Under the pieces are notes generated by a model. That model was not told the origin of the DNA and did not search any database. It saw only the letters and a list, made by a program, of their open reading frames with translations. The translations under genes and the position numbers were made by a program. A stretch of 64,000 nucleotides of DNA from assembly GCA_021813145.1 (NCBI GenBank), contig JAKALS010000001.1, forward strand, positions 67,515 to 131,514, written 5' to 3'. Numbering within the stretch: the first letter of the stretch is position 1; each line of letters begins with the position of its first letter. Shown in pieces: positions 7,580 through 25,409 of this stretch. Source of the DNA: a bacterium. GTDB lineage: Bacteria > Patescibacteriota > Microgenomatia > Levybacterales > UBA12049.

Positions 7580-7616
7580 GACAACTCCTCGACTTGCGGC
7601 GAGGAGGTTGTCTTTT
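7580..7616 (+). terminator. Rho-independent terminator
   Basis: gacaactcctcg-acttgcgg-cgaggaggttgtc hairpin (about 12 bp with one bulge) followed by a TTTT tract. Confidence 0.65.
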
Positions 7617-7672
7617 GGGAATTTGGGATAGACGTTGACATAGAATCTAATTTTCATTATCATTCCTAAGTT

Positions 7673-7852: not shown

Positions 7853-8764
7853 ATGGAAAATTTGGGATATTCAAAACCTCTTTATATTCTTCCTTTTGAC
7901 CATAGGTCTACTTTTGCCCAAAAAATGTTCAATAAAAGTTCATTAAATGATTTATCCGAAGAAGAAAAGCAAATGATTAAAGATTTTAAGATGATTATCT
8001 ATGAGGGTTTTAAAAAAGCGGTGACAGGGGGAATTCCAAAAGAGTATGCGGCAATATTGGTAGACGAAGAGTTCGGAGAAGAGGTTTTAACCGATGCCAA
8101 ACAAAACGGATTCATAACGATTCTCACAACAGAAAAATCCGGACAGGAAGAGTTTGATTTTGAGTACGGGGAGGATTTTGCGGCTCATATAGAAAAACAT
8201 TCCCCAATCTTTGCAAAAGTTCTAATAAGATATAATCCCGAAGATCCGGAAGATTTAAGACACAGGCAACTCGAGAGGCTAAAAAAGATAAGCGTTTTTT
8301 GTAGGGAAAATGGTTTTAAGTTTTTACTCGAGGTTTTAGTAATAGCAAACGAAAAGCAAAAAGAAGAAACGGACAATTCAAAGGAAAAATTCGATGACTT
8401 ATTGCGTCCGGCTTTAACGGTCGCGGACATTAAAGAGCTTCAGGATTTTGGCATCGAGCCCGATATATGGAAACTCGAGGGTTTTGATACGGCACAGCAT
8501 TATAAAGAAATTGTAGAAACGGCAAAAGAGAACGGCAGGGAAAATGTTAGTCTGGTAGTTTTGGGAAGAGGAGAAGGTGAGGAAAAAGTCGAGGAATGGC
8601 TTAGGATAGGAAGCAAAGTTAACGGAGTCGTAGGATTTGCCGTAGGGAGGACTGTTTTCTGGCAGAGTCTGGTTGACTTTAAAAACAGAATAAAAACAAG
8701 AGAAGAGGCAGTATATACAATAAGCGCCAATTTCACCAATTTTTACAGGATTTTTACTTCTTAA
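7853..8764 (+). CDS. Class I aldolase-like protein (DUF2090 / LacD tagatose-bisphosphate aldolase-like)
   Basis: N-terminal LYILPFDHRSTF resembles the ALAFDQRG motif of the LacD/DUF2090 family. 303 aa. Family assignment is by recollection only. Confidence 0.4.
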   Translation: MENLGYSKPLYILPFDHRSTFAQKMFNKSSLNDLSEEEKQMIKDFKMIIYEGFKKAVTGGIPKEYAAILVDEEFGEEVLTDAKQNGFITILTTEKSGQEEFDFEYGEDFAAHIEKHSPIFAKVLIRYNPEDPEDLRHRQLERLKKISVFCRENGFKFLLEVLVIANEKQKEETDNSKEKFDDLLRPALTVADIKELQDFGIEPDIWKLEGFDTAQHYKEIVETAKENGRENVSLVVLGRGEGEEKVEEWLRIGSKVNGVVGFAVGRTVFWQSLVDFKNRIKTREEAVYTISANFTNFYRIFTS

Positions 8765-8768
8765 ATTT

Positions 8769-10157
8769 ATGGAAGATAAAAGTTTTAAAGGGATTCTTCA
8801 GGATATAATGCTTCGGGAAGTGCCTTCTTATGCAAATAAGTTCTTTTACTCTCTCGGTTTTTTATCAATGACCGCTTTTATGATTCTTATTTTAAGCGGT
8901 TTTGTCCTTGTCTTTAACGGCCCCACGTGGTGGCTTACCGATCCTTTCGGTGTTTACGTAAGAAGCGTTCATCTTTGGGCTACCCAAGCTTTCATATTTT
9001 TTATTTTCTTGCATCTTTTGATAGTTTTTTTGACCTCCGGCTTCAGGCTCGAACGAAGGTTAACCTGGGTTTTTGGATCACTTATGCTTTTTGCGGCTCT
9101 TTTTGAAGCGGAATTCGGGTACGGTCTACGTGGGGACTTTTCTACGCAATGGAGAACCTTGCAGGCGGCAGACTTATTCAACGGTAGCGGACTCGGACTT
9201 TTTATAAATAACCTTAACTATTCTCAAATATATGGAATTCATATAGTGCTTATTCCTCTTATAATCCTAAGCCTTTTGTTTTTCCACTATCTCTTAATAA
9301 GAGTAAGGGGGATAGCAAAACCTTTTAAGAAAGGCACTCAGTATAAGATGGTCAAAGCAAATCATGAGGTTCTTTTTTTAAGAGGTCTTGTTCTGGTAGG
9401 AGCAATTGTTGTTCTTGCATATTTTTTCAGGTCGCCTTTAATACTACCAACTACCATTAAGGATGTAGCCTCCCAGGACCCGCAGCTTATGGCGCAGACA
9501 CTTTTTGAGGAGTATAACCATACATCCGATACCGCGACTTATCTTGACAGCATAGACCCATATAAGTTTGATACAAGAAAAGTCTACATAGACTATCCTT
9601 ATTTACAATACATAAAACTTACGGGAGGAGCCGATATGCTTGGAATGTTCAATTCGGAAAATATTTCTTTGCAAAACAAAAATATAAAAGAAGCGGAAAA
9701 CTATTTTAAGAACGGGGGAACACCCGATACTTCGGTAAATTTTAAAAATCCGTTAATTTCCGTAATAAGTTCGCTTATTCTAATGGGGAAAAGCGGACTT
9801 TATGAAGATGCCCTAAGAGGGGAAGTGCAAGGAGGATTAAACCCGACTTATGTGACAAGATTTATTTCGGATACCGGAGTTCTGGAGGCAAAGGCCGAAA
9901 GACTTAAAATAACAACAGATCAGTACGGAATGCTTAAAGAAGAAACCGGAATCCTACCGCCTGGCGCCTGGTGGCTCGCGCCGGTAGGCATTTTGGATAA
10001 TACGCTTTTAGCAAATGATCCCAATCAGGACAGGGATGGGGCAGAAATACTCGGATTTTTGCTTCTGCTTTTGATAGCTTTTCCTTACATACCGTATCTG
10101 AACAGGATTCCGGAAAAGTTATCCATAGACAAATTCCTCTGGAAAAGTAAGGTTTAG
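8769..10157 (+). CDS. Cytochrome b/b6 homolog (cytochrome b N-terminal heme-binding domain plus C-terminal domain with inserted soluble segment)
   Basis: VRSVHLWATQAFIFFIFLHLLIVFLTSGF aligns with cytochrome b6 [29 protein letters not shown]. His pairs are spaced 14 and 15 residues apart, as in b6 (H86/H100 and H187/H202). C-terminal ...PPGAWWLAP...IPYLNRIPEK resembles the PEWY/subunit IV region. Confidence 0.7.
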   Translation: MEDKSFKGILQDIMLREVPSYANKFFYSLGFLSMTAFMILILSGFVLVFNGPTWWLTDPFGVYVRSVHLWATQAFIFFIFLHLLIVFLTSGFRLERRLTWVFGSLMLFAALFEAEFGYGLRGDFSTQWRTLQAADLFNGSGLGLFINNLNYSQIYGIHIVLIPLIILSLLFFHYLLIRVRGIAKPFKKGTQYKMVKANHEVLFLRGLVLVGAIVVLAYFFRSPLILPTTIKDVASQDPQLMAQTLFEEYNHTSDTATYLDSIDPYKFDTRKVYIDYPYLQYIKLTGGADMLGMFNSENISLQNKNIKEAENYFKNGGTPDTSVNFKNPLISVISSLILMGKSGLYEDALRGEVQGGLNPTYVTRFISDTGVLEAKAERLKITTDQYGMLKEETGILPPGAWWLAPVGILDNTLLANDPNQDRDGAEILGFLLLLLIAFPYIPYLNRIPEKLSIDKFLWKSKV

Positions 10158-10331
10158 TGCCTTACAGCTTTCTTACCCAGTTTTGATTAAAATTTAATCC
10201 CCTAAACATACAATTTTCTAACTTAATGTTCTCTTCTAAATTTTCCGTTTGTTCTTAAGTACTATTCGTCGAGTCAGACTCGATTTGTACACGGCTTTCG
10301 GGAAGGGCGTTAAGAATTTCTAAAGGGGGAG

Positions 10332-10625
10332 GTGAAAAATATGTATATGCCAGACGATAAAATCGATGATATGGGAAATGATGACATGGACATGGATGTT
10401 GATGAAGGACAGCAACAGGCACAGGGAGGAACCCAAAAAGTGAATCCTGTCCAGGTTCAGAAGTTTCTCAAAGGGGTAGATTATCCTGCCGATAAAAATG
10501 AGCTGATACAGGCAGCCAAGGACGAAGGAGCCGACGAAAATGTAATTTCTATGCTCGAATCTTTGCCAGAGGAGCAGTATCAGACTCCGGCAGATTTAAG
10601 CCAAGCAATTGGAGCCGAAGAATAA
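10332..10625 (+). CDS. DUF2795 family small acidic protein
   Basis: VQKFLKGVDYPADKNELIQAAKDEGA...LESLP matches the DUF2795 signature. Strong SD GGGGGAGGTGA. Confidence 0.6.
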   Translation: MKNMYMPDDKIDDMGNDDMDMDVDEGQQQAQGGTQKVNPVQVQKFLKGVDYPADKNELIQAAKDEGADENVISMLESLPEEQYQTPADLSQAIGAEE

Positions 10626-10669
10626 TCTTCCTCCTGTTGGTGCGAAAAATCTATCCTCAAAACTAAATT

Positions 10670-10713
10670 AGGTTGTCGAAAAACCGCCCGGTTATTGACA
10701 ACCTGATTTTTTT
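10670..10713 (+). terminator. Rho-independent terminator
   Basis: aggttgtc...gacaacct stem with T8 tract. Confidence 0.55.
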
Positions 10714-10757
10714 GTATTTACACTATATTTAGCTCGTTTTCCAAAGGGGGTGATTTA

Positions 10758-10988
10758 ATGAAATTCTTCACAAAACAGAATTCAATTCTCGTAATAATTA
10801 TCATTTCCATAGCAGGGATACTTTTTTCGGGTTATTTATCCTACAGGGAATTATTTACATACAGTTGTAATATCGGTTTTGTTGCATGCGGCGCAAAAGT
10901 CGGAACATTGCCTGCCTGTGTTTACGGTCTTTTAATGTACTCTTTGGTATTTATAGTTTCGTTTTTCGGATATAAGAGTAAAAAATAA
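10758..10988 (+). CDS. Small two-TM membrane protein with Cys-containing loop (VKOR/DsbB-like N-terminal fragment?)
   Basis: 76 aa. SGYLSY...C..C...TLPACVYGLLMY resembles the first TM and Cys loop of the VKOR family but lacks the CXXC helix. SD GGGGGTGA. Confidence 0.35.
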   Translation: MKFFTKQNSILVIIIISIAGILFSGYLSYRELFTYSCNIGFVACGAKVGTLPACVYGLLMYSLVFIVSFFGYKSKK

Positions 10989-10990
10989 AA

Positions 10991-11016
10991 AAGCCCCGAA
11001 TAAATCGGGGCTTTAA
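10991..11016. terminator. Bidirectional rho-independent terminator
   Basis: agccccga-ataaa-tcggggct perfect 8-bp stem between convergent genes, flanked by A and T tracts. Confidence 0.65.
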
Positions 11017-11042
11017 ATATTGGATCATAGCTTTAGGAGATT

Positions 11043-11465
11043 CTATCTCTCGATTAAATCCCCTAAATTTTCATGCAATTGAGTCTGGGTATGCAATTGC
11101 AGGTTGGTTTGGGTTTGTGTTTTTAATCTGTCTTGATCGCCATCTTGGTCCTGCTCTTGTTCCCTTGCCCTTACCGAAAATCTGTTAGTATTATTAACCC
11201 CTACGCTTAAATTAACCTGAGAACTGGTAGTTGCCTGGGGCGTAGCTATCGGTTCTTCGGTAGGCGTCGCTGAAGGCGAGGCAGAAGTTTCAGCTCCCTG
11301 TTTTGCGATATTTGCTTCAATATGCGCTTTTGCAATTGCGTTTTTTACCACTTCTTCCGCTCTTTGCAACCCTGTCGTATGGGAAACATTTGCATTTCCT
11401 CCTATGTTAAAAAATGCCGCTCCTCCGAGAATTGCTGTAGCCGCAAGTGCTATTATAAGTTGCAT
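11043..11465 (-). CDS. Secreted/membrane-anchored hypothetical protein
   Basis: N-terminal hydrophobic segment MQLIIALAATAILGGAAFF, then a low-complexity T/Q-rich region. Confidence 0.45.
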   Translation of the reverse strand: MQLIIALAATAILGGAAFFNIGGNANVSHTTGLQRAEEVVKNAIAKAHIEANIAKQGAETSASPSATPTEEPIATPQATTSSQVNLSVGVNNTNRFSVRAREQEQDQDGDQDRLKTQTQTNLQLHTQTQLHENLGDLIER

Positions 11466-11524
11466 ATTTTTTCACCCCCTTCTTTTATAAATATATAAAC
11501 GGAATATGCTAAAAAACGTAACAC

Positions 11525-12292
11525 TTACTCTTCTTTGGTGAAGTTGTGGAAAGCGTTTTCTATGCCTTTTTGTATATTATCTAAAGGGCTTGTCTCCCTA
11601 TTCAGGTTTTGATTTTGTCCTTGGTTTGACTGATTTATATTTTGGCCGACGGGTGTCGGGGAAGGGGAAGGACTTATTTCGTCAAAGGAAGGACTCTGTG
11701 TTCTTAATTCGTAGTTATTATTTTCTTCATGGTTTGTACTCTCTTTCTTTTCCGTCCTTTTTTCCTGATTATTAATTATTGCATTAAGTTTTTCTTCTTG
11801 GGTTTGAAGTTGCGTGTTTATCGTGCTATTTTCCGGAACTACTGTTTTTGCCCGGTTTATACTTTCCTGAAATCTTTGAATGCCCTGTTTTATCTGTTGA
11901 CTGTTTCCTGTTTTTTGTTCTTTAGAAAGCTCCTGATCCCTTCTTTGTACGATTCCAATAGCTACCTGTGCTTTTAATGGAGCAGGAGAGAGATTAAGAG
12001 CAATATTTTCACTTGCAATTTTTATCGGATAGAGGCTGCTTTTAGGGCTTGCAGATTGAGCAGCAAGTATTGTTCCGGAAGAAAGTACTAAAAGTATCAG
12101 AACAAGAGTGAGCGCCAGGCGGAAAGAAAAAAAACTTCTTCTTTCGGAAACAGACGAAGTATCGGGTGAAACGGAATTCATTATTCTTATTTTTGCATTT
12201 TGCCTGAATTCCATAGAGGGAACAGCCTCTTCTTTTGTTTTTAAGGATCTCAGTAATGATTCCAATTGATCAAATTCAGTTTCTTTTTTCAT
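11525..12292 (-). CDS. Putative anti-sigma factor (single-pass membrane protein)
   Basis: Overlaps the stop of the upstream ECF sigma gene. Cytoplasmic N-domain, one TM (LALTLVLILLVLSSG) and an extracytoplasmic low-complexity domain. Confidence 0.5.
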   Translation of the reverse strand: MKKETEFDQLESLLRSLKTKEEAVPSMEFRQNAKIRIMNSVSPDTSSVSERRSFFSFRLALTLVLILLVLSSGTILAAQSASPKSSLYPIKIASENIALNLSPAPLKAQVAIGIVQRRDQELSKEQKTGNSQQIKQGIQRFQESINRAKTVVPENSTINTQLQTQEEKLNAIINNQEKRTEKKESTNHEENNNYELRTQSPSFDEISPSPSPTPVGQNINQSNQGQNQNLNRETSPLDNIQKGIENAFHNFTKEE

Positions 12293-12833
12293 ATATTATT
12301 TTTTTTAATGCCTTGAGAGCCCTTGACTGCAAAACCCTTATATGGTCGACAGGCTTTTCAAGAATTTGGCTTATTTCTATATTATCCTTTTCTTCTATAA
12401 ATTTAAGAATAATTATTTCTCTGTAACTTTCTGGCAGTTGCTTCAGTTTTTCGAATATTATTTCTTTAAGCATTTTGCTCTCAACAATATTCTCCGGAGA
12501 ATCTTCGCTGTCCGGCACGGTTTCTTTTATTTCTTCATTCAGGCTTATCTTTATTTTTTTTGTTCTGTAATAATCTATCACGGTATTTCTTGCTATCCGA
12601 AACGCAAAAGCTTCGAAAGGCAGCCCTTTATCCTTATACGACGGCATGCTTTCCCAAATTTTTATAAACACCGTTTCGGTCAGATCTTCCGCGTCTTCCT
12701 TGTTCCCTGTTTTAAAGTAAATAAAACGGTAAATCTTGTCCAAAAGCAGGTCATAAATTTCCCCGAAAGCTTTTGCATCTCCTTTTTGCACTTTTTTTAC
12801 CAGTGCCTGCATCTTTTTGGTATTTCCATTCAT
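12276..12833 (-). CDS. ECF-type RNA polymerase sigma factor (sigma-70 regions 2 and 4)
   Basis: FGEIYDLLLDKIYRFIYFKTGNKEDAEDLTETVFIKIW (region 2) and the C-terminal HTH ...DNIEISQILEKPVDHIRVLQSRALKAL (region 4). Confidence 0.8.
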   Translation of the reverse strand: MNGNTKKMQALVKKVQKGDAKAFGEIYDLLLDKIYRFIYFKTGNKEDAEDLTETVFIKIWESMPSYKDKGLPFEAFAFRIARNTVIDYYRTKKIKISLNEEIKETVPDSEDSPENIVESKMLKEIIFEKLKQLPESYREIIILKFIEEKDNIEISQILEKPVDHIRVLQSRALKALKKIIYEKRN

Positions 12834-12920
12834 ATTTATTAACGAATAAACAGATAAAATGAAACAGCCCCTACTATAGCACTTTTACGCCTTTCTTACC
12901 TTCTTCTAATTCAAATTTTA

Positions 12921-13601
12921 ATGCATTTTAATAAGATTGGCATTATGGCAAAAGAAAATGAAAACGGAAGAGCATTTCCTATAAAAACCGAGCGCAAAAG
13001 AAAGAGCGAAAAAAGAAAAAGCAGGCATTTTCCAAGCGTAGATTTGAAAATAGAATCCGGATCCGAAGTAGAACTTTCAAGACCCGAAGAGCACAATCTG
13101 GTATTTTTGGCAAGAAATTATGCGAGAGTTTACGATGCTATTTCCGGTCTTGCCAAAACTCAGGAGGAGACATCGGATGAGATAAAAGATATCGCCAGAG
13201 AGCACGAAGGGCTGATGGGCGTAGTCGAGCCGGGAGTGTATGATATTTCGATTTTTCCTTCAGAAGCCGTTTCATATAGCAGACAGGGTTTAAGAGAAGG
13301 ATTAGGTACTTATTATGAAGAGGTAGTCAGAGACGAAGTCTTGTTAACCTTTACCGTTCCCAGAGGTTTTGATCCGCAGCTGGCAAGGGATGCTCTTGGT
13401 CGGCTTCTTTGCGCAAAAGGCAGAATTCCCAAAAGCGAAATAGAAAGATATCTGCAAATGAAGATTAATTCTTACGTTGATGAAATAAAGCTTGAGGAAT
13501 TGCTGAAAAGGGGAGCGGTAACTCTTGCCGATGGGACAAAAAAAGTAGAGACAGCTTGGACGGTAAGGCCGAATAAAGTTCCGCCAAAAGAGGCGGACTA
13601 A
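12921..13601 (+). CDS. Hypothetical protein
   Basis: 226-aa ORF. Start may be the internal MAKENENG. No recognised domain. Confidence 0.4.
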   Translation: MHFNKIGIMAKENENGRAFPIKTERKRKSEKRKSRHFPSVDLKIESGSEVELSRPEEHNLVFLARNYARVYDAISGLAKTQEETSDEIKDIAREHEGLMGVVEPGVYDISIFPSEAVSYSRQGLREGLGTYYEEVVRDEVLLTFTVPRGFDPQLARDALGRLLCAKGRIPKSEIERYLQMKINSYVDEIKLEELLKRGAVTLADGTKKVETAWTVRPNKVPPKEAD

Positions 13602-13936
13602 ATTTCGGGGGGAACAAGGGCGCTTCTTACCATATTAAGAATCGGATTCATTTCTTTTAACTGATTCTCGTGTTCGTCATTAATATATTCCTGATTCCAT
13701 CTGTTTAGTCTCCTGTAACCTTTTCCGGTTACAACATTAAACCATGCTTCGTAATATTCTCTGATAGCCTGCCTGTATTTTTTGAAGTTATTTTTTCTTC
13801 TTTCCCTGTTTTCGGTTCTAGTTACTATAATACCTTCCATAGTTTCCCAACTGGGTGTTGCATGGAAAGTTTTTCTGTAATCCTCAAGCTGAGCTCCGGA
13901 GGGTCTTTGGTAAAGATTTTGAATTTCTACTGTCAT
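13598..13936 (-). CDS. Hypothetical protein
   Basis: 112-aa ORF. Convergent 4-nt overlap with the preceding gene. Confidence 0.4.
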   Translation of the reverse strand: MTVEIQNLYQRPSGAQLEDYRKTFHATPSWETMEGIIVTRTENRERRKNNFKKYRQAIREYYEAWFNVVTGKGYRRLNRWNQEYINDEHENQLKEMNPILNMVRSALVPPEI

Positions 13937-14017
13937 ATTACGGCAGGATAGACGGAATATAGCACAAAGAATATAGGATTACAATAATTTCCATTACTTT
14001 GACAGAGGTTCTAAACT

Positions 14018-14275
14018 TTGTTAGTATGCGGGTATATGGAAGAAACAGGCGAGCTTATAGAGGTGGATTTTAAAAACAGGAAAAGAGTGGAAACGGGAAG
14101 AAGGGCCATGGATAAATTATCACAGGCACTTGCCGGATTTGGACTTTCTGCCGGGGAAGATAATGTTATTCACTCACGAAAACTTCATTCGAGACTTCAC
14201 AGAAGCGTAGTAGAGCAAAATAGGGAGGGACACCCCGACGATTCAAAAGTTGCCCAATTTAAAAGGAATAAATAA
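14018..14275 (+). CDS. Small hypothetical protein, translationally coupled to the downstream nuclease
   Basis: Stop TAA overlaps the ATG of the next gene (TAATG). 85 aa, or 79 aa from MEETGE. Confidence 0.3.
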   Translation: MLVCGYMEETGELIEVDFKNRKRVETGRRAMDKLSQALAGFGLSAGEDNVIHSRKLHSRLHRSVVEQNREGHPDDSKVAQFKRNK

Positions 14276-15030
14276 TGTCAGAATATTACAATCCTAAAAG
14301 AAAAAGTAATTTATACGACCCTAACTCCACGATTCCTTTCAGGCTTAGCCGTAGTAAAATCGACTTATTTTTAAATTGTCCGCGGTGTTTTTATCTGGAC
14401 AGAAAACTCGGAATAGCACAACCTCCCGGTTATCCCTTTTCCCTAAACAGTGCCGTAGATAAACTCTTAAAAAAAGAATTCGATATTTTAAGGGAAAAAG
14501 GTGAAGCGCATCCTTTGATGAAGCAGTTCGGAGTAAATGCAATTCCTCTAAAACACGAAAAACTTAACCGCTGGAGAGATGCCCTTTCGGGAGGAATAAC
14601 TTTTCTGCACCGAAAAACAAATATTCTTATAACAGGAGGGATAGACGATTTATGGATTAATCCGGAAGGAGAATATATAATCGTCGATTATAAAGCGACT
14701 TCAAAAGACAGCGAAGTAGGCATAGACGCCGACTGGCAGATAGGATACAAAAGGCAGATGGAAATATACCAGTGGCTTTTCAGGCAAAACGGGTTTAAGG
14801 TCTCGGATACCGGATATTTTGTATACTGTAACGGAAAAACCGACGGAGAAAAGTTTGACGCAAAACTTGAGTTCGACATTAAAATAATACCTTACAAAGG
14901 TGATGTTTCGTGGGTAGAAAAAGCCGTACAAGAAGCGGCAGCATGTTTAAGAAGCGACAAACTTCCTCCCTCCGGTATAGACTGTGATTTCTGCAAATAC
15001 CGCCAAGCCCTTAAATCTGTAGAAGAATAA
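14275..15030 (+). CDS. PD-(D/E)XK nuclease, Cas4/RecB-like, with predicted Fe-S cluster Cys residues
   Basis: N-terminal CPRC and C-terminal C-x13-C-x2-C, as in Cas4/AddB-type clusters. D...D-Y-K (IIVDYKA) and QMEIYQW (Q-x3-Y) RecB-family motifs. Confidence 0.7.
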   Translation: MSEYYNPKRKSNLYDPNSTIPFRLSRSKIDLFLNCPRCFYLDRKLGIAQPPGYPFSLNSAVDKLLKKEFDILREKGEAHPLMKQFGVNAIPLKHEKLNRWRDALSGGITFLHRKTNILITGGIDDLWINPEGEYIIVDYKATSKDSEVGIDADWQIGYKRQMEIYQWLFRQNGFKVSDTGYFVYCNGKTDGEKFDAKLEFDIKIIPYKGDVSWVEKAVQEAAACLRSDKLPPSGIDCDFCKYRQALKSVEE

Positions 15031-15031
15031 T

Positions 15032-15427
15032 ATGAGGACTTTTGTACAGGAGTACGAGATCCATTCGTCGATAGAGAAAGTCTGGAGTGCCTTAACAGAT
15101 TCATCACAAATGGAAAATTTAGCAGGTCCTGCAAGAATGGATACAAGTGAAGGCATGAAATTCTCTTTGTGGGGCGGCAAGGTTTATGGTACGAATATAG
15201 AAGTTGTCCCTTATCAGAGGCTTGTTCAAGAGTGGTATGCCGGGGACTGGAAGGAACCGTCTATCTTGACAATAAAATTACACAAGGGAATAAATACGGT
15301 TAGAGTAGAAATTCTGCATGAAAACCTGCCGGACAACGAATACGAGAAAACCGAAAACCTCTGGAGAGAATTTATAAAGAATCTTCAAGCTCTTTTCCAA
15401 CTTTTTGAGGTCTTTTATTACGATTAA
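15032..15427 (+). CDS. SRPBCC / AHSA1-like (activator of Hsp90 ATPase homolog) domain protein
   Basis: 131 aa. EIHSSIEKVWSALTD...KFSLWGGKVYGTNIEVVPYQRLVQEW pattern typical of the AHSA1/polyketide-cyclase-like family. Confidence 0.6.
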   Translation: MRTFVQEYEIHSSIEKVWSALTDSSQMENLAGPARMDTSEGMKFSLWGGKVYGTNIEVVPYQRLVQEWYAGDWKEPSILTIKLHKGINTVRVEILHENLPDNEYEKTENLWREFIKNLQALFQLFEVFYYD

Positions 15428-16027
15428 ATGACCGTTTTGAACGATCAATCCTTTTCCCATCAGAAAAAGAAGTTCTCTTGTAGTTGTTTCCCTTGTCAGA
15501 TTTATCGTATTGGCTATATCTTTATGCGTAACGGGAATATCGAGGATTACTCTTCCATTATATTCTTTTCCGAATCTTCTCGAAAGTGATATCAGCCTTG
15601 ATACTACCTTCGTGTAGGCTTTTGTATATTCTAGGTCGTCGATTCTATTTGCATAAACCTTGAGAATATTTGACATTCTGTCTATTATTTCAAGAAGGTG
15701 CCTGCTGTCACTTTTTATAAAAGTCATGAATTCTTCTCTTCCGGCTTTTTTGATTACAACGTCTTCCATTGCCTCGAAAAAAATGTCCCGTGTTTCTCTT
15801 TTAAAAAATGAAACAAGCGGGAACATCTCGGCCGGACCGAAAAAGATATGGGTCATTTCATTTCCCGATTCTGTCAGGGAATATACTTTTACATGGCCTT
15901 TTTCGATGTAGTAAATGTCACGGGGAATTTCTTCGTCGGGATGAAGAATAATCTGTCCCTTTTTATAATTTTTCGCCTTGAATGCCGAAAAATATTTTTC
16001 GATGCCGTCCGAGGTTAAATCACTCAT
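15278..16027 (-). CDS. Crp/Fnr family transcriptional regulator
   Basis: cNMP-binding beta-roll (GQIILHPDEEIPRDIYYIEKGHVKVY) followed by HTH (DIANTINLTRETTTRELLFLMGKGLI). The 3' 150 nt overlaps the convergent SRPBCC gene. Confidence 0.75.
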   Translation of the reverse strand: MSDLTSDGIEKYFSAFKAKNYKKGQIILHPDEEIPRDIYYIEKGHVKVYSLTESGNEMTHIFFGPAEMFPLVSFFKRETRDIFFEAMEDVVIKKAGREEFMTFIKSDSRHLLEIIDRMSNILKVYANRIDDLEYTKAYTKVVSRLISLSRRFGKEYNGRVILDIPVTHKDIANTINLTRETTTRELLFLMGKGLIVQNGHLIVIKDLKKLEKSLKILYKFSPEVFGFLVFVVRQVFMQNFYSNRIYSLV

Positions 16028-20826: not shown

Positions 20827-22479
20827 ATGGACTCGAATTTAATTGATGAATTAAAAAAAACGATAAAGGGTGATGTGCAAACAGACGAAGACACTCTTAA
20901 AACCTACAGCCATGATGCTTCTTTGTTTGAGGTAAAGCCCCAGGTTGTCGTCTTTCCAAAAGATAACGAAGACGTGGAAAACCTTGTAAAGTTTGTCCTA
21001 AAGCATAAAAATCAATATCAGAACCTTTCCTTAACCGGAAGAAGTGCCGGGACGGATATGGGAGGAGGTTCTATAAACGATTCCATAATAGTAGCCTTTG
21101 GAAAATACTTTAATAGTCCTCCGGTTATTTCGGGAAATACCGCAACTACCCAGCCGGGCGTTTTCTACAGAGATTTCGAAGCGGAAACCTTAAAACAGAG
21201 GCTTATTTTCCCTTCTTATCCGGCATCAAGAGAACTTTGTGCAATGGGCGGGATAGTAAATAACAATTCGGGGGGAGAAAAATCGCTTCAATATGGTAAG
21301 ACGGAAAAATATATAAAAAGAGTAAAAGTAGTCCTCGCCGACGGAAAGGAATACGAATTTAAAAAATTAAAGGAGGAGGAACTCAAAAAGAAAATCGAGC
21401 AAAAAGATTTTGAAGGCGAGATCTACAGAAAAATGTACGACCTTATTACAAAAAATTTTGACCGTCTCCAAAAAGCCAAACCTACGGTCTCGAAAAATTC
21501 GGCGGGGTATTACCTTTGGAATGTGTGGGATAAGGAAAACAAGACATTTGACCTTACAAAACTTTGGACAGGGGCTCAAGGAACTTTAGGATTATTGCTT
21601 GAGGCAGAGTTAGAGCTGGTTCCTGTATATAAACATCAGGAGATGGAAGTAATTTTCTTGAGGGATATGAGCCATTTAGGGCAGATAATAGATACTGTCT
21701 TACCGTTAAAACCCGAGAGTTTTGAAAGTTATGACGATAATACACTAAAACTTGCCCTCAAATATTTCCCGGAGTTTGCAAAAAAGCTGGGAATTTTCGG
21801 AATGTTTGAGGCCGGTCTTGCATTTTTCCCCGCATTTTTACAAATGTTGACAGGAAAACTCCCGAAGCTTATTTTACAGGTAGATTTTACAGGAGACGAT
21901 CCGGAAGTTCTTAGGGGAAAAATAAATACGCTGAGGGAAAAACTTAAACCTCTGCATCCTGTTACAAAAGTTTCGGTGGATTCTGCCGAGAAAAAATACT
22001 GGCTGGTAAGAAGGGAGAGTTTTAATTTGTTGCGTAATAAAATAAGAGATAAGCATACCGCTCCTTTTATAGACGATTTTGTAATAAATCCTCACGATAT
22101 TGCGGAAGTTATACCTCAGGTAACGGGAATTTTAGACAAACATCCGGAGTTTATTTTTACCGTGGCAGGACACGTCGGGGACGGTAACTTTCATATAATT
22201 CCTCTTGCTGACATTACCAACCCAAATGTGAGAAAACTTATTCCGCAGATTTCAAAACAGGTTTACGGCATAGTTTCCAAATATCACGGGTCCATAACGG
22301 GAGAGCATAATGACGGACTTATAAGAACGCCCTTTTTAAAGGAAATGTACGGAGAAGATATAGTAAAATTATTCGAGGAAACAAAGAAAATATTTGACCC
22401 ACAGAATATCTTTAACCCCCGTAAAAAAGTAGGAGGGGATCTTAATTATTCAATGGAGCATATAAGGGTTGACTGGTAA
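20827..22479 (+). CDS. FAD-linked oxidase (GlcD / D-lactate dehydrogenase-like, FAD_binding_4 plus C-terminal domain)
   Basis: VVVFPKDNEDVENLVKF...SLTGRSAGTDMGGGSI FAD-binding PCMH-type region. 550 aa. Confidence 0.8.
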   Translation: MDSNLIDELKKTIKGDVQTDEDTLKTYSHDASLFEVKPQVVVFPKDNEDVENLVKFVLKHKNQYQNLSLTGRSAGTDMGGGSINDSIIVAFGKYFNSPPVISGNTATTQPGVFYRDFEAETLKQRLIFPSYPASRELCAMGGIVNNNSGGEKSLQYGKTEKYIKRVKVVLADGKEYEFKKLKEEELKKKIEQKDFEGEIYRKMYDLITKNFDRLQKAKPTVSKNSAGYYLWNVWDKENKTFDLTKLWTGAQGTLGLLLEAELELVPVYKHQEMEVIFLRDMSHLGQIIDTVLPLKPESFESYDDNTLKLALKYFPEFAKKLGIFGMFEAGLAFFPAFLQMLTGKLPKLILQVDFTGDDPEVLRGKINTLREKLKPLHPVTKVSVDSAEKKYWLVRRESFNLLRNKIRDKHTAPFIDDFVINPHDIAEVIPQVTGILDKHPEFIFTVAGHVGDGNFHIIPLADITNPNVRKLIPQISKQVYGIVSKYHGSITGEHNDGLIRTPFLKEMYGEDIVKLFEETKKIFDPQNIFNPRKKVGGDLNYSMEHIRVDW

Positions 22480-22533
22480 AAACTCTTCTTAATTTTTCAG
22501 TTAAACTTCAGAAAATAATGTAAAATAATATCT

Positions 22534-23067
22534 ATGAGAAAATATTTTCAGATCAGTTTTTTTCTCGGACTATTCGGACTTTTGGTATTTGTTAGACAAT
22601 CTCTAGGTTTTGGAGACAGCCATAGAGTTATCGGACCGGTTGCAACGCCATTGTCTCCGGTAAATCCCTCAAGCAATCCTCAAGCTACCCCAGTCCCTTC
22701 ACAAGCGCCTTCTTCTTCCGGTTCAACTGCGGCAACTCCTAGTCCCGTTCCCGTGGGGCCGCAGATGATGCAAAAGAGGATGGGGCAGTATAAAGACGGA
22801 ACTTATACGGGAAGCGTACAGGACGCCTTTTATGGAAATATCCAGGTTCAGGCGGTTGTTTCGGGAGGAAGAATTACAGCCGTTAATTTTTTGCAGTATC
22901 CGAATGACAACGGTACTTCCCAGTATATAAACAGCCAGGCCGATCCGATGCTTGCCCAAGAAGCGATCCAGGCACAAAACGCGAACGTTGATATTATCTC
23001 GGGTGCTTCGGATTCCAGTATGGCTTTTCAGGCCTCTTTGACGGATGCTCTTTCTCAGGCTAAATAA
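22534..23067 (+). CDS. Secreted FMN-binding-domain protein (NqrC/RnfG/PplA-like), candidate flavinylation substrate
   Basis: Signal peptide, P/S/T linker, then YKDGTYTGS...VDIISGASDSS. The [ST]GA[ST] motif is the site of ApbE-mediated covalent FMN attachment. Confidence 0.7.
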   Translation: MRKYFQISFFLGLFGLLVFVRQSLGFGDSHRVIGPVATPLSPVNPSSNPQATPVPSQAPSSSGSTAATPSPVPVGPQMMQKRMGQYKDGTYTGSVQDAFYGNIQVQAVVSGGRITAVNFLQYPNDNGTSQYINSQADPMLAQEAIQAQNANVDIISGASDSSMAFQASLTDALSQAK

Positions 23068-23073
23068 TTAACA

Positions 23074-23808
23074 ATGAAAAAAACAACAACCGTAATGGGT
23101 ATGCCTTCTACAATAAATTTGGCCCAAGGCAATGCAAAAGAAGAGGATATAAATGAAGTTTTTTCATACTTTCATTACATTGATAATAAATTCAGCACTT
23201 ATAAAAAGGACAGTGAAATTTCACGAATAAACAGGAGAGAAATACGAAAAGAGGAATGGAGCAGGGAAATGGAAAAGATAATGAGCCTTTGCGAAAAGAC
23301 GAAAAAAGAAACAGAGGGTTATTTTGATATCAATATAAAAGGTTTAATGGATCCTTCGGGACTGGTTAAAGGTTATGCAATCTTGGAAGGGGCAAAAATT
23401 CTTCGAAAAAGGGGATACAAAAACTTTTTTGTGGAGATTGCGGGAGATATTCAGGCAGACGGATTTAGCAAAAAAGGTGAGAAATGGAAAATAGGCATAC
23501 AAAACCCTTTTGATTCAAGACAGGTAATTAAAATAGTACAATTAAGTAATATGGGCATTGCCACATCGGGAACATATATCCGGGCAGGACATATAAACAA
23601 CCCCAAAAGCGGTAAGCCTGCCGATGAAATCGCAGCAATTACAGTGATAGGGCCTGATGTTTACGAAGCGGACAGATTTGCGACTGCCGCTTTTGCTATG
23701 GGAGAAAAAGGAATAAATTTTATAGAAAACCTTAACGGCTTTGAGGGATATATGGTAAAGAAAAATAAGAAGGCTGTTATGACAAGGGGATTCCATAATT
23801 ACTTATGA
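23074..23808 (+). CDS. apbE: FAD:protein FMN transferase (ApbE family)
   Basis: GLVKGYAI, GDIQADG and IATSGTY motifs of ApbE. Adjacent to the FMN_bind protein. Confidence 0.8.
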   Translation: MKKTTTVMGMPSTINLAQGNAKEEDINEVFSYFHYIDNKFSTYKKDSEISRINRREIRKEEWSREMEKIMSLCEKTKKETEGYFDINIKGLMDPSGLVKGYAILEGAKILRKRGYKNFFVEIAGDIQADGFSKKGEKWKIGIQNPFDSRQVIKIVQLSNMGIATSGTYIRAGHINNPKSGKPADEIAAITVIGPDVYEADRFATAAFAMGEKGINFIENLNGFEGYMVKKNKKAVMTRGFHNYL

Positions 23809-23882
23809 TTTGCTTGCCATTTCTATTTATTTAAAAACTATGAATCAGTGGTAAATGGAAATCGAAAAATGAAAAATATGTT

Positions 23883-25409
23883 ATGAGATATATCGACAGA
23901 TTTTTAAATAAATTTACAATGTACAGGTTTACCCTGTACTATCTTATTTTTCTAATTGTCGCAGCCGCGCTTTTAGCGTACTTCGGACTTTTAAATTATA
24001 ACCCGATGGATATTCTTATAGAGGCCGGAGTTGCCGTGATAGTTTCTTATGCGGCAAACACTTTTTTTGCAAAGCTTTTCGGTGCGGTTACAAATTACGA
24101 ATCGGTATTTATTACGGCTTTAATCCTTGCCCTTATTGTTCCGGTTCAGTTTCCCCTTAACATGCTTTTTATGGTAGGAGCCGCGGGGGTTGCGATGGGG
24201 AGCAAATACCTTTTGACAATAGAAAAAAGACATATATTTAACCCTGCTGCTGTTTCTGTTGCTATGATATCCCTCCTTTCTCCCGAGCATGCGGCGACCT
24301 GGTGGGTTGGAAATCCTGTCATGCTCCCTTTCGTTCTAGCAGGAGGACTTTTGCTTGTTAGGAAAATTCAAAGAGAAACAATGGTTTTTTCTTTTCTCAT
24401 AGCATATTTTATAGCAATAGCTATAGCTGCGGTCATCAATACAGGTTCTCTTGTTGATATTGTTACAATTTGGCAGTCAAGCGTTTTCCATTCGGCGGTT
24501 TTTTTCTTTGCTTTTGTTATGCTTACGGAGCCGCTTACATCCCCTTCTAAAGAAAAAAAGCAGGGATATTACGGGTATTTTACCGCAATTTTGTATGCTA
24601 CGCCTATTCTGAGGGTTCTGAACTTTACTCCCGAGCTTTCACTGTGTATCGGAAACGCCTTTTCCTATTTCATCAGTCCCAATTACAGATATTCGCTGCC
24701 ATTAAAGTGGAAAAAACAGATTTCCCGGGACACATATGTTTTTGCTTTCGAACAGCCAAAATCAATTAAATATGAACCGGGTCAATATATGGAATGGACC
24801 CTTACGCATAAAAACACCGACAGCAGAGGGAACAGGAGATACTTTAGTCTTTCATCTTCTCCGACGGAAGGTGTGCTTATGACAACAGTAAAGTTTTATG
24901 ATCCTTCCAGTTCTTATAAAAAAGAACTTATAAATCTTCCCGAAGGACGCCAGGTCATTGCGGCTCAAGTGGCGGGGGATTTTGTGCTTCCTAAAAATTT
25001 AAAGGAACCTCTTGTTTTTATAGCTGGAGGCGTAGGTATAGCACCATTTAGAAGCATGGTGCAGTATATAATAGATAAAAATCTTCAGGTGAACATAATA
25101 CTTATTTATACAAACAGGACAAAAGAAGATATTCTTTTTGCAAATACATTTAAGGAAGCCGAGAAAAACGGAGTAAAAACAATATATAACCTTACAGATA
25201 TTAAAAGCGTTCCGGCCGACTGGCAAGGGACAACAGGTTATGTGACCAAAGAATTGGTGGAAAAAGAAATTCCGGATTACGGAACGAGGAAATTCTATAT
25301 CTCTGGTCCGCAGCTTATGGTACAAAGATTCGAGCAGACGCTTTTAGATACGGGAGTTTCTTCGAAAAATATTATTACGGATTTTTTCCCCGGTTATAAC
25401 GAGACCTGA
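23883..25409 (+). CDS. Membrane RnfD/NqrB-like domain fused to FNR-like FAD/NAD(P)-binding reductase domain
   Basis: N-terminal polytopic domain with the FNPAA motif of NqrB/RnfD. C-terminal RRYFSLSSSP (R-x-Y-S FAD motif) and GGVGIAPF (NAD(P) motif). Ends DFFPGYNET, like the FNR paralog at 48.5 kb. Confidence 0.7.
   Translation: MRYIDRFLNKFTMYRFTLYYLIFLIVAAALLAYFGLLNYNPMDILIEAGVAVIVSYAANTFFAKLFGAVTNYESVFITALILALIVPVQFPLNMLFMVGAAGVAMGSKYLLTIEKRHIFNPAAVSVAMISLLSPEHAATWWVGNPVMLPFVLAGGLLLVRKIQRETMVFSFLIAYFIAIAIAAVINTGSLVDIVTIWQSSVFHSAVFFFAFVMLTEPLTSPSKEKKQGYYGYFTAILYATPILRVLNFTPELSLCIGNAFSYFISPNYRYSLPLKWKKQISRDTYVFAFEQPKSIKYEPGQYMEWTLTHKNTDSRGNRRYFSLSSSPTEGVLMTTVKFYDPSSSYKKELINLPEGRQVIAAQVAGDFVLPKNLKEPLVFIAGGVGIAPFRSMVQYIIDKNLQVNIILIYTNRTKEDILFANTFKEAEKNGVKTIYNLTDIKSVPADWQGTTGYVTKELVEKEIPDYGTRKFYISGPQLMVQRFEQTLLDTGVSSKNIITDFFPGYNET

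Follow-up and report, generated by a model that had tools for sequence, protein, structure and literature searches.

A cytochrome b6-like protein fused to a modified subunit-IV-like part in Patescibacteria: a putative Rieske-independent transmembrane electron wire

Among described systems, PetB and PetD of the b6f complex, and of the b6c complex of Firmicutes, are close to the cytochrome b homolog analyzed here. They share with it a di-heme four-helix bundle with His spacings of 14 and 15, a C-terminal 'IRxxGIxxP' motif, and the succession of helix E, Qo loop, and helix F in that order, and the petB-petD arrangement is mirrored by its split relatives. However, the protein encoded in the window (the whole 64,000-nucleotide stretch of DNA that was analyzed) is fused, has an invariant Ser28 instead of the Cys that binds heme cn, and has no Rieske partner. 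Its subunit-IV part has two transmembrane (TM) helices rather than three, helix E and the Qo loop are separated by an ectodomain of ~180 amino acids (aa), and the loop carries GAWW where PetD has PEWY or PDWY.

Other known systems resemble it in narrower respects. Actinobacterial QcrB and bc1 cytochromes b are the top Foldseek matches by E-value, and the alignment of the family profile to cytochrome b extends through helix E. In contrast, the global rmsd to full-length cytochromes b is ~20 Å, and the window protein lacks helices G and H, a Cytochrom_B_C domain, and QcrA/QcrC neighbors. ExtP, from a selenite/tellurite reduction operon, is a short b6-type cytochrome named for a non-bc operon, but its profile, of length 205, covers only query residues 10 to 184 and has no counterpart of the subunit-IV-like part or the ectodomain. 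MsrQ/YedZ, NOX/FRE, and cytochrome b561 are alike in the action proposed below, with two stacked b hemes across the membrane and no Q cycle, whereas their folds and families are unrelated and neither PF01794 nor b561 matches the window protein. Lastly, NQR/RNF-like flavinylation systems are enriched in CPR bacteria (Patescibacteria) and have no assigned acceptor (Meheust et al. 2021, eLife; PMC8238504). The FMN_bind-ApbE-NqrB/NqrF genes of the window fit such a system, which is also a recurrent operon partner of the family, although the cytochrome b is homologous to no NQR or RNF subunit; the term 'cytochrome b' is absent from the full text of PMC8238504.

The cytochrome b6-type bundle and its predicted heme ligands

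The open reading frame (ORF) at positions 8769 to 10157 of the forward strand starts with ATG and encodes 462 aa (ORF listing); the features of this protein given below lie on the same strand. Together, the ORF, Pfam, and PDB searches, the alignment, and the AF2 model (pLDDT 85.4, pTM 0.81) point to a fused cytochrome b6-like/subunit-IV-like gene with an ectodomain. The best explanation of this cytochrome b is a Rieske-independent two-heme transmembrane protein, in which a b6-like portion (helices A to D, hemes bL and bH) is fused to a modified subunit-IV-like part composed of helix E, the helical ectodomain, the G-A-W-W 'Qo-motif' loop, and helix F. A hydrophilic stretch, residues ~220 to 419, separates TM5 from the final TM.

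An earlier note on this DNA had described the product as a full-length cytochrome b/b6 homolog. The homology holds, as both PF13631 (4.8e-13, 49.9 bits; gathering cut-off, 27) and PF00033 (2.1e-7, 31.4 bits; cut-off, 27.2) match above their gathering scores and the structure matches are to b6. 'Full-length' has to be withdrawn: the model has six confident TM helices instead of the eight of a full-length cytochrome b, there is no PF00032 (Cytochrom_B_C) match at an E of ≤0.1, and the neighboring Rieske or cytochrome c gene of a bc1 cytochrome b is missing. Nor is this a typical PetB. The NCBIfam model for PetB, PRK03735, reaches 65.8 bits where 325 are required, tying as best NCBIfam match with that for ExtP, NF040969 (4.9e-18, 65.7 bits against a cut-off of 290), both being below cut-off; the CxGG cysteine is lacking, no Rieske (PetC/QcrA) gene adjoins, and there is no subunit IV encoded apart with three TM helices.

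The bundle itself spans residues ~6 to 190 (8784 to 9338), as placed by phmmer, Foldseek, and identity to the split forms. Among solved structures it is nearest to cytochrome b6 chains (1q90_B, E = 1e-17 over residues 6 to 185 in a phmmer search of the PDB), and a PDB search with the family profile matches b6 at an E of 1.5e-23. The comparison with b6f and bc1 structures that the earlier note had proposed separates the two: superposition of the AF2 model on b6 with Foldseek gives an rmsd of 2.7 to 3.1 Å and a TM-score relative to the target of 0.71 to 0.75, against the far larger value for full-length cytochromes b given above. Identity of the N-terminal region to b6 is 27 to 30%, so that the alignment claimed earlier stands while the word 'closely' does not.

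All four heme ligands of b6 are found in a gap-free alignment and are invariant in all 111 homologous sequences of the family alignment. His68 (8970 to 8972) in helix B and His158 (9240 to 9242) in helix D are the predicted ligands of the outer heme (bL/bp), with His82 (9012 to 9014) in helix B and His173 (9285 to 9287) in helix D as those of the inner heme (bH/bn). The spacings, 14 for H68/H82 and 15 for H158/H173, are those of b6, as had been noticed from the letters. R65, R96, W100, G30, and G44 are also invariant in the 111 sequences. At the place of b6 Cys35, which binds heme cn covalently, all 111 have Ser28 (8850 to 8852), b6 'NIFYCIGG' aligning with 'KFFYSLGF' of the window protein, and the window protein contains no cysteine at all. 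These comparisons support the N-terminal domain as a genuine cytochrome b6-type di-heme domain, with heme binding predicted.

A relic without heme, which would have lost electron transfer and kept a structural or transport role (e.g., in heme or lipid uptake), is extremely improbable. It would suit the lack of heme biosynthesis in CPR, and cyanobacterial cytochrome b paralogs without His ligands do exist (subfamily K; PMC5600118). However, more than 100 sequences diverged to 57% identity show no change in the four His, the heme-packing glycines, or the propionate-binding arginines, a signature of retained heme binding. A heme protein had been called unexpected in such a genome; it is less so, given that oxidases requiring heme and quinone are found in soil CPR that lack the pathways to make either (PMC6031116, PMC8407418).

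Both faces of the bundle show further conservation. On the outer face, the cd loop (residues ~120 to 150; 9126 to 9218) is strongly conserved and differs from that of canonical cytochrome b, with R121, D123, S125, R129, L131, D135, N138, G139, G143, and N147 invariant among the 111 sequences; its motifs recur in the split-form b6-like proteins. On the inner face, R96, Y174, H199, and R205 are conserved next to heme bH.

The C-terminal half and its relation to a split gene pair

Helix E (residues 199 to 219; 9363 to 9425) runs from the inner to the outer face according to the AF2 helix and the family-profile alignment, and is followed by an all-helical domain at residues 220 to 396 (9426 to 9956), delimited by AF2 and by homology to the split-form ectodomain. 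The DE loop has five Lys/Arg and no Asp/Glu, and the C-terminal tail has five Lys/Arg and two Asp/Glu. These positive-inside counts, with the six confident TM helices of the AF2 model, show an outward-facing (extracytoplasmic) position for the extra domain in the predicted topology. It has no Pfam or NCBIfam match, a fold search of the PDB returns no match (best E = 0.25), and the family alignment contains no conserved Cys/His pair in it. It defines a new extracytoplasmic domain without structural relatives among solved folds. We also considered the ectodomain as a target of ApbE flavinylation and rejected it, as a [ST]GA[ST] motif occurs in the ectodomain of just 1 of 111 family members and the conserved S-[DG]-T-A-T-Y of the family alignment does not fit the flavinylation motif.

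The ectodomain leads into a Qo-motif-like loop, LPPGAWWLAPVG (residues 397 to 408; 9957 to 9992), identified by conservation and hhalign and placed just before the last TM. G399, A400, W401, W402, L403, P405, and G407 are invariant among the 111 sequences. Topologically, G-A-W-W occupies the position of PEWY, with no carboxylate at position 2 of the motif. The last TM helix (residues 420 to 440; 10026 to 10088), equivalent to helix F by AF2 and charge counts, is followed by a basic cytoplasmic tail, and helices G and H are missing. Known variants of the Qo motif include APWY, GPWF, and GPWY, and its Trp is 96% conserved over all cytochromes b (PMC4122944). The resemblance to PEWY and subunit IV seen by the earlier note is borne out in register and position, as hhalign against PDB PetD sequences sets GAWW opposite PEWY, the register that homology predicts, and 'FPYIPyLNR' opposite PetD 'VPFIEsvNK'; it is not borne out in significance (E = 0.31 and 0.038, neither significant). 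An attempt to prove from sequence that the C-terminal part represents subunit IV was given up, there being neither a Cytochrom_B_C match nor a significant hhalign score, and PetD not being recovered by the family profile in the PDB search.

The C-terminal module also exists as separate proteins of ~320 to 330 aa with the order TM, helical ectodomain, G-x-W-W loop, TM. In Alicyclobacillaceae and Thermaerobacter (Firmicutes) and in Chloroflexota, a b6-like gene of ~200 aa and a ~330-aa gene of this kind are adjacent, accompanied by one for a ~75-aa 2-TM protein. The ectodomain gene abuts the b6-like gene in all five contexts; in four of them the two overlap by 4 nucleotides (nt), and in L092 the ectodomain gene starts 2 nt past the end of the other. 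The window protein and the split pair are collinear (36 to 39% identity in the N half; E of ~1e-10 for residues 192 to 459) and have in common the cd-loop motifs, the ectodomain, the P-G-x-W-W-L loop, the cytoplasmic tail, and a Rieske-free operon. The window protein differs in being one polypeptide instead of two and in lacking a detectable CPR counterpart of the conserved small 2-TM subunit, for which a hidden Markov model search of 17,421 small ORFs, taken from the window and CPR loci, yielded no significant match. What had been read as a soluble insertion into cytochrome b is instead a fusion: gene order and collinearity show the window gene as the product of joining two adjacent genes, one b6-like and one encoding the two-TM ectodomain protein, which are separate in Firmicutes and Chloroflexota. 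The architecture adds to the reuses of the cytochrome b/subunit IV module outside bc complexes.

We found no functional description of the split two-gene system in the literature, and its ~330-aa proteins are labeled 'hypothetical protein' or 'cytochrome B6'. The split operons of Firmicutes are mostly self-contained; the ancestral function need not involve flavoproteins. With homologs in cultivable Alicyclobacillus and Fodinisporobacter, the Rieske-less system is open to experiment.

The conserved Qo-like loop and inner-face residues are equally compatible with a quinone-dependent, Rieske-independent enzyme, a reading that we consider rather unlikely. The GAWW loop, cd loop, and ectodomain would then form a closed outer quinol/quinone pocket and the inner residues a Qi-like site, and the protein would shuttle between scavenged host-derived quinone pools or anchor a quinol-linked reaction, of the kind that di-heme cytochromes b serve in NarI, FdnI, and Geobacter Cbc-type complexes. 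Invariance at the Qo position, including the widely conserved Trp, and conservation on the inner face both agree with it, as does the presence of split-form homologs in cultivated, non-reduced Alicyclobacillaceae and Thermaerobacter; Alicyclobacillus contains menaquinone. ExtP, with its selenite/tellurite-reduction operon, is among the top NCBIfam matches, and soil CPR with cyo operons have been suggested to scavenge quinones (PMC6031116, PMC8407418). Against this, the window contains no quinone biosynthesis genes, the Qo motif has no carboxylate at position 2, and what recurs as a partner in operons is a flavoprotein system rather than a quinone reductase. Furthermore, one-electron quinol oxidation by heme bL is thermodynamically unfavorable without a high-potential acceptor such as Rieske.

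Distribution of the family and redox genes around it

The gene is no orphan, as it had first been called. A homolog search returned 633 matches, the best 120 of which are full length with 57 to 99% identity, and a published cytochrome b phylogeny already includes the family (Dibrova 2017, PMC5600118). Homologs are carried by 80 species-level genome loci, from Daviesbacteria, Levyibacteriota, Doudnabacteria, Berkelbacteria, Adlerbacteria, Saccharimonadia, and Paceibacterota, and by another 80 metagenome loci; locus titles name soil, peat, and groundwater as habitats. The family is thus widely conserved across Patescibacteria/CPR, and the conservation survey that the earlier note had suggested finds both gene and ectodomain kept. 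In the literature searched, CPR cytochrome b came up only in that phylogenetic mention, the other matches in CPR papers being to bo3 and bd oxidases.

Rieske and cytochrome c genes are systematically absent beside the cytochrome b gene, in the window, at 79 genome loci, and in five split-form operons. A motif scan finds no Rieske motif or credible c-type cytochrome in any window ORF and no Rieske protein or cytochrome c in 947 ORFs of the 79 genome loci, the scan covering the window and these genome loci. As the earlier note had stated, the window shows no Rieske, cytochrome c, quinol oxidase, or quinone-biosynthesis family, here in Pfam annotations covering ~1 to 61.8 kb, and the 25 most frequent Pfam families among 150 flanking genes include no Rieske, cytochrome c, or oxidase family. 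Inside the five split-form operons no Rieske or cytochrome c gene is called; the sole Rieske gene seen lies, with a SoxE gene, ~6 kb from the operon at locus L090. As no bc partner is nearby, a non-bc use of the cytochrome b fold, which the first reading had ventured, is therefore the best reading.

A conventional bc-type subunit, whose Rieske, cytochrome c, or other partner genes would lie at distant sites of the genome, is very unlikely. Room for it is left by the extent of inspection, ~64 kb of the window genome and ±6 to 10 kb of the others, by the L090 Rieske and SoxE genes, and by the JGI label of some members, 'ubiquinol-cytochrome c reductase cytochrome b subunit'. Yet in prokaryotes a Rieske gene nearly always sits next to that for cytochrome b (Dibrova 2013/2017), and such a neighbor was seen at none of 79 genome loci and in none of 5 split operons. 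The window protein also lacks helices G/H and the Glu/Asp of the Qo motif, the 180-aa domain covers the Rieske-head docking surface in the AF2 model, and no CPR genome surveyed by Beam et al. (PMC7507113) has a complete electron transport chain.

The view of the window as devoid of redox partners does not survive annotation, which reveals an FAD-linked oxidase/FMN_bind/ApbE/NqrB-NqrF cluster at 20.8 to 25.4 kb. Within it, three forward-strand genes (22534 to 25409) match the description of an NQR/RNF-like system, with an NqrB/NqrF fusion, ApbE, and an FMN_bind protein with an intact Dxx[st]GA[ST] motif (PMC8238504). The first (22534 to 23067; PF04205) encodes a secreted or anchored FMN_bind protein with an N-terminal anchor and the flavinylation motif DIISGAS, a candidate outer-face partner of the cytochrome. 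The second (23074 to 23808; PF02424, 8.5e-46) encodes an ApbE FAD:protein FMN transferase. In the third (23883 to 25409; PF03116, PF00970, and PF00175), an NqrB/RnfD-like membrane domain is fused to an NqrF-like FAD/NAD-binding domain, and its product is predicted to be the NAD(P)H dehydrogenase of the 'NQR/RNF-like' system.

In the window, this flavin module lies 12 kb downstream of the cytochrome b gene and is separately transcribed. Elsewhere, an FMN_bind gene is found directly 3' of the cytochrome b homolog in L013, L059, L070, L072, L082, L103, and L170. The operon reads cytochrome b-FMN_bind-ApbE-NqrB/F in L059, L070, L072, and L082, ending with full-length NqrB/F orthologs (44 to 47% identity), which are also found within 6 kb in L022 and L083. 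Cytochrome b and flavin module share a common operon in one lineage, are close in several, and are separate in most genomes. With lineages defined at 70% identity, FMN_bind or ApbE occurs within 6 kb in 8 of 50, for a rough binomial P of 1e-4 to 1e-6 under a crude null, the lineages not being fully independent. Strict NqrB/F orthologs alone (3 lineages) are not significantly enriched, and at ~80% of loci the surrounding 6 kb are free of flavin-module genes. Metagenome loci L103, L170, L117, L100, and L109 reproduce the link in part, and split-form L090 adjoins two FMN_bind and two NOX-like genes.

A proposed electron path and the immediate neighbors

Our main reading, to which we give a probability of about 0.4, is that the cytochrome b works as a two-heme electron wire through the membrane, independent of Rieske and possibly coupled to extracytosolic flavoproteins. 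The wire would connect a remodeled outer-face site by bL, made of the cd loop, GAWW loop, and ectodomain, with the conserved inner-face site by bH. In CPR, the most likely outer-face partner would be the ApbE-flavinylated FMN_bind protein, reduced by the NqrB/NqrF-type NAD(P)H dehydrogenase, from which electrons would pass from bL to bH, outside to inside, with heme, and any quinone, being scavenged. An inward course from bL to bH is that of every characterized cytochrome b and is favored by the heme potentials. Such flow would furnish a return branch for an otherwise unidirectional 'NQR/RNF-like' system, and we propose the cytochrome as a candidate acceptor or partner for these systems, which have had no endpoint.

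The opposite direction, as in outward reductases of the Dcytb, NOX, or MsrQ kind, seems unlikely. A cytoplasmic donor would feed bH, then bL, and finally an extracellular acceptor such as Fe(III), humic or host-surface quinones, or oxidized surface proteins, serving disposal of reducing power or iron uptake. NOX-like and MsrQ-like ferric-reductase-domain (PF01794-type) proteins and glutaredoxin recur near cytochrome b homologs, the membrane potential favors outward flow, the habitats would suit it, and some NQR/RNF-like clusters are tied to iron assimilation (PMC8238504). However, neither a donor nor a docking domain can be discerned on the cytoplasmic side, the heme potentials of characterized cytochromes b point inward, and the activity would be redundant, with NqrB/F and NOX-like proteins already providing an outward path.

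The electron wire could be taken a step further, into a minimal quinone-free redox loop of which the cytochrome b would be the return branch: from NAD(P)H through NqrB/NqrF to surface FMN_bind, then inward and electrogenically to an acceptor at the cytoplasmic face. We regard this extension as decidedly improbable. If true, CPR deemed purely fermentative would possess a small chemiosmotic circuit, or else a means of redox contact with the host cell surface, built of parts with no previously known joint function.

CPR account for much of bacterial diversity and have been described as lacking electron transport chains. A strongly conserved di-heme membrane cytochrome in many of their classes clashes with that picture, and would imply heme scavenging and some transmembrane electron transfer. 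We infer that the protein is probably a transmembrane electron carrier in cells regarded as non-respiring.

The genes that flank the cytochrome b gene are incidental. Pfam confirms the aldolase-like and DUF2795 neighbors noted before, a DUF2090/DeoC-like aldolase gene (7853 to 8764, forward strand) ending 4 nt upstream and a DUF2795 protein at 10332 to 10625. As functional partners both were rejected, since none of the 79 genome loci and none of the 80 metagenome loci has a homolog of either near cytochrome b. A 76-aa Cys-rich ORF (10758 to 10988; weak VKOR match) is not conserved near homologs and was set aside too, and a universal operon partner can be dismissed, the commonest neighbor family occurring in just 13 of 79 loci. 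The window has no Rfam matches, hence no upstream riboswitch or RNA element by this search, and no tRNAs. A promoter-like site (7635 to 7663) follows a hairpin (7585 to 7606) upstream of the aldolase gene, which is probably co-transcribed with the cytochrome b gene here, yet without a functional link. Among the genes that recur near homologs are also FNR/Crp regulators.

A b6-type domain in a CPR family

The open reading frame at 8769-10157(+), confirmed at exactly these coordinates and with an ATG start, encodes a 462-aa protein with a predicted di-heme scaffold of the b6 type, on which purifying selection is strong. A Pfam search recovers its cytochrome b domain (PF13631, 4.8e-13; PF00033, 2.1e-7; both above gathering scores), and among solved structures the protein is closest to chains of cytochrome b6 (1q90_B, residues 6-185, E=1e-17). 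The bis-His spacings proposed in the earlier note are confirmed, being 14 for H68/H82 and a b6-specific 15 for H158/H173, and all four residues align ungapped to the b6 heme ligands. The proposed likeness to b6 is further supported by an AF2 model (111 homologs as input; pLDDT 85.4, pTM 0.81), the N-terminal bundle of which superposes on b6 at 2.7-3.1 Å. Six transmembrane (TM) helices are predicted (26-50, 59-88, 94-119, 151-180, 199-219, and 420-440), with a hydrophilic all-helical domain between the last two. Because of the positive-inside counts (5 K/R versus 0 D/E in the DE loop; 5 versus 2 in the C-tail) and the known b6 topology, this domain is predicted to be extracellular.

Whereas b6 has a heme-cn-binding cysteine, the family has an invariant serine there, and the window protein is entirely without cysteine. 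It also lacks helices G and H of the b6f and bc1 cytochromes, and the place where the Rieske head docks in those complexes is, in the model, taken by a 180-aa domain. NCBIfam models for b6, ExtP, QcrB, and SoxC all give scores far below their cut-offs.

The description of this protein as an orphan is not borne out, as 633 matches were found among 5.8 billion proteins, a scan of one genome per species confirmed 108 loci (80 kept), and a metagenome scan yielded 112 further loci (80 kept). The best 120 of the 633 matches are all ~445 to 500 aa long, with query coverage of 95 to 100% (nearly all 97 to 100%) and 57 to 99% identity, and their named sources are Patescibacteria, Levyibacteriota, or Saccharimonadales. 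The kept genome loci are labeled Daviesbacteria, Levyibacteriota, Doudnabacteria, Berkelbacteria, Adlerbacteria, Parcubacteria/Paceibacterota, and Saccharimonadia, along with a few metagenome-assembled genomes (MAGs) labeled Actinomycetota; the closest named homologs (62% identity) come from MAGs of Levyibacteriota, Daviesbacteria, and Doudnabacteria. On these grounds, the window belongs to a CPR bacterium. The family is already known in that it is present in databases, as "cytochrome b N-terminal domain-containing protein" at NCBI, and placed in a phylogeny, where Saccharibacteria and Patescibacteria cytochromes b were put in a heterogeneous "subfamily G" and not analyzed further (Dibrova et al. 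2017, PMC5600118). Of the features reported here, namely the fused architecture, the relatives encoded by two genes, the ectodomain, the consistent lack of a Rieske protein, and the link to flavinylation modules, we found none described in the literature. The family, its function being inferred, is of interest for CPR physiology and cytochrome bc evolution.

Invariant in 111 sequences are the four His ligands, R65, R96, W100, and the helix-A glycines; a polar outer-face block in the cd loop (R121, D123, S125, R129, D135, N138, and N147); and, in the C-terminal part, E248, S253, T255, Y258, P264, Y265, R364, D368, G399, A400, W401, W402, L403, P405, and G407. There is a conserved outward surface beside the predicted outer heme, together with conserved inner-face residues. 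Set beside these invariant ligands, a heme-less relic is scarcely credible.

The C-terminal half and its two-gene relatives

The protein had been read as a full-length cytochrome b with a soluble insertion. This does not hold: Pfam gives no Cytochrom_B_C match, and the protein is collinear with a two-gene pair. Against full-length cytochromes b, the family profile alignment ends at helix E, and Foldseek comparison of the model gives an rmsd of ~20 Å. With residues 186-462 as the query, 1.84 billion cluster representatives yielded only 52 matches, some joined to cytochrome b domains and many of them ~320-aa proteins without a Pfam domain. The latter consist of an N-terminal TM helix, the homologous soluble domain, a P-G-[PAQ]-[WA]-W-L loop (PGPWWL, PGAWWL, or PGQAWL), a C-terminal TM helix, and a basic tail. 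A profile built from them found 962 relatives, including Alicyclobacillus, Sulfoacidibacillus, Fodinisporobacter, Thermaerobacter, and Chloroflexota.

In all five split-form contexts examined (loci L089-L093), the ~330-aa gene comes immediately after one for a ~200-aa cytochrome b6-like protein; the two share 4 nt in four contexts, and in L092 the second begins 2 nt downstream of the first. No Rieske or cytochrome c gene is within the operon. The N half of the window protein shares 36 to 39% identity with the b6-like proteins of the split form (E 1e-43 to 1e-48) versus 30% with Chlamydomonas b6, and the product of the second gene matches residues 192-459 from end to end (E~1e-10). On this collinearity, the CPR protein is the fused product of the two genes of a Rieske-less cytochrome. 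Each split operon ends in a conserved ~75-aa two-TM ORF with a basic tail (68-81 aa; ~7990-8360(+)), and three of the five have a ~31-54-aa ORF 5' of the b6-like gene. These small proteins, likely additional subunits, have no detectable counterpart in CPR loci.

Topologically, the second part of the window protein (helix E, outer-face loop, helix F) occupies the same position as subunit IV, or the cytochrome b C-domain. In profile-profile comparison with five authentic PetD sequences from PDB, the resemblance to the PEWY/subunit IV region that the earlier note described appears in the expected register, although without significance (fused form, E=0.31; split form, E=0.038): "ILPEWYFYPV" of PetD falls opposite "lPPGAWWLaPlG", and "VPFIEsvNKF" opposite "FPYIPyLNRiP" and "VPFIPGLNKLP". 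Homology to subunit IV is likely, though unproven. Natural Qo-motif variants include APWY, GPWF, and GPWY, with Trp at position 3 being 96% conserved (Kao and Hunte, PMC4122944); G-A-W-W fits this series, but without a carboxylate at position 2. A quinone-dependent, Rieske-independent enzyme working on scavenged quinone is a less probable alternative to the reading proposed below. Scavenged heme must be assumed under every redox model, and there are precedents in CPR bacteria that have cyo operons but lack heme or quinone biosynthesis (PMC6031116, PMC8407418). Modeled by itself, the ectodomain has a core pLDDT of 80 to 93; it has no family annotation and matches no solved structure (best E 0.25).

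Gene neighborhoods and bc partners

In line with the earlier note, the 64 kb contain no Rieske motif and no credible c-type cytochrome, and Pfam annotations of the called genes (~1-61.8 kb) include no quinol oxidase or quinone biosynthesis. The Rieske motif is likewise missing from all 947 ORFs called and clustered in 79 genome loci, and Rieske, cytochrome c, and oxidase families are outside the top 25 families of 150 flanking genes, in which FMN_bind is joint commonest. Features that define Q-cycle enzymes are missing: a Rieske partner (not found at the surveyed loci), the heme-cn Cys, and the Qo carboxylate. A conventional bc subunit with partners encoded far away is very unlikely. The sole Rieske gene seen near any member of either family lies in the split-form locus L090, followed by a SoxE (sulfocyanin-like) gene, ~6 kb off.

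No neighbor is widely conserved, the commonest occurring in 13 of 79 loci. The flanking genes are the aldolase-like DUF2090 and DUF2795 genes described earlier; homologs of these occur near the cytochrome b gene in no surveyed locus, and their adjacency is incidental. In the window, however, the DUF2090 and cytochrome b genes are probably co-transcribed, to judge from the 4 nt between them and a promoter-like site at 7635. Recurrent redox neighbors are membrane NAD(P)H reductases, either NOX-like or NqrB/NqrF fusions (13 loci), ApbE (9), secreted FMN_bind proteins (8), MsrQ-like proteins (5), and glutaredoxin (5).

A hint of redox or oxygen-responsive control comes from Crp/FNR regulators, which are encoded no more than 6 kb away in 6 of 79 loci (L012, L031, L036, L048, L069, and L073) and, in the window, at 15278-16027(-), at a distance of 5 kb. 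A type IIIA plasma-membrane proton-efflux P-type ATPase-like gene (567 bits against TIGR01647, cut-off 615) adjoins the homolog in 11 of 79 CPR loci, immediately 5' on the same strand in L012, L054, and L084 and recurring in L021, L027, L035, L014, L020, and others, with L093 and L168 also listed; a fragment adjoins the Thermaerobacter split operon. This recurrence may mark a membrane-energetics neighborhood.

Flavin modules and a proposed electron path

The window carries at 20827-25409(+) a complete cluster of a 550-aa GlcD/YdiJ-like FAD-linked oxidase, an FMN_bind protein with a signal anchor and flavinylation motif (DIISGAS), ApbE, and a 508-aa fusion of an NqrB/RnfD-like membrane domain, lacking the [ST]GA[ST] motif, with an NqrF-like FAD/NAD domain. 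The cluster corresponds to the "NQR/RNF-like system" known chiefly from Actinobacteria and CPR, for which unidirectional electron transfer from NAD(P)H to extracytosolic FMN has been proposed, with the acceptor undefined (Meheust et al., PMC8238504); the NqrB/F fusion was singled out in a soil Saccharibacterium (Starr et al., PMC6031116).

In four loci (L059, L070, L072, and L082), cytochrome b, FMN_bind, ApbE, and NqrB/F genes follow in this order on a single strand, with 63-86-nt gaps after the cytochrome b gene, and the last large proteins are full-length orthologs of the 508-aa protein (44 to 47% identity); L022 and L083 have such orthologs, too, at distances of up to 6 kb. With the 79 loci collapsed to 50 lineages at 70% identity, FMN_bind or ApbE occurs within 6 kb in 8 lineages (P 1e-4 to 1e-6 under a crude expectation of 1.5 to 3% per lineage) and some flavin or NAD(P)H-reductase module in 10, while enrichment of strict NqrB/F orthologs by themselves (3 of 50) is not significant. 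The metagenome set replicates this in part, FMN_bind adjoining in L103, L170, and L117 and NqrB/F being near in L100 and L109, some replicating loci being duplicates of genome loci. Two FMN_bind and two NOX-like genes also stand alongside the split form in L090.

With a probability of roughly 0.4, we infer that the protein is a transmembrane electron wire that would exchange electrons at its outer face with a flavinylated FMN_bind protein and relay them through bL and then bH in the direction of the cytoplasmic face, by which the NQR/RNF-like system would gain a return branch. An outward-directed reductase of the Dcytb/NOX kind is an unlikely reading.

On its 1.6-Mb metagenomic contig, L090 has a Haem_bd protein with these FMN_bind and NOX-like genes; the stretches 8320-13383(-) and 13852-14993(+) take in these genes as well as those for the Rieske protein and SoxE. 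FAD-linked oxidases (FAD_binding_4 plus FAD-oxidase_C) lie within ~8 kb of the homolog on several Saccharimonadales contigs; listed sites are L004/L006 (1-384), L132 and L173 (-7.6 kb; 47% identity to the 550-aa protein), L039, and L092 (10227-11645). Next to the split operon of Fodinisporobacter there is also one, accompanied by a CCG/Fe-S subunit. The window also encodes a stand-alone 230-aa ferredoxin-reductase-like FAD/NAD-binding protein at 48488-49180(-), domain relatives of which recur near the homologs as part of NOX-like and NqrB/F proteins.

No tRNA genes (ARAGORN) or Rfam families at gathering score were found in 1-64000. A two-TM, 76-aa ORF at 10758-10988(+) with four cysteines and a weak VKOR-family match (E=0.0019, below cut-off), not conserved near the homologs, may represent a thiol-oxidoreductase-like membrane protein in truncated or minimal form. 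At 11525-12833(-), on the strand opposite to the cytochrome b gene and 1.4 kb downstream of it, an ECF-type sigma factor gene (Sigma70_r2/r4) overlaps that of a DUF5667-like putative anti-sigma membrane protein.
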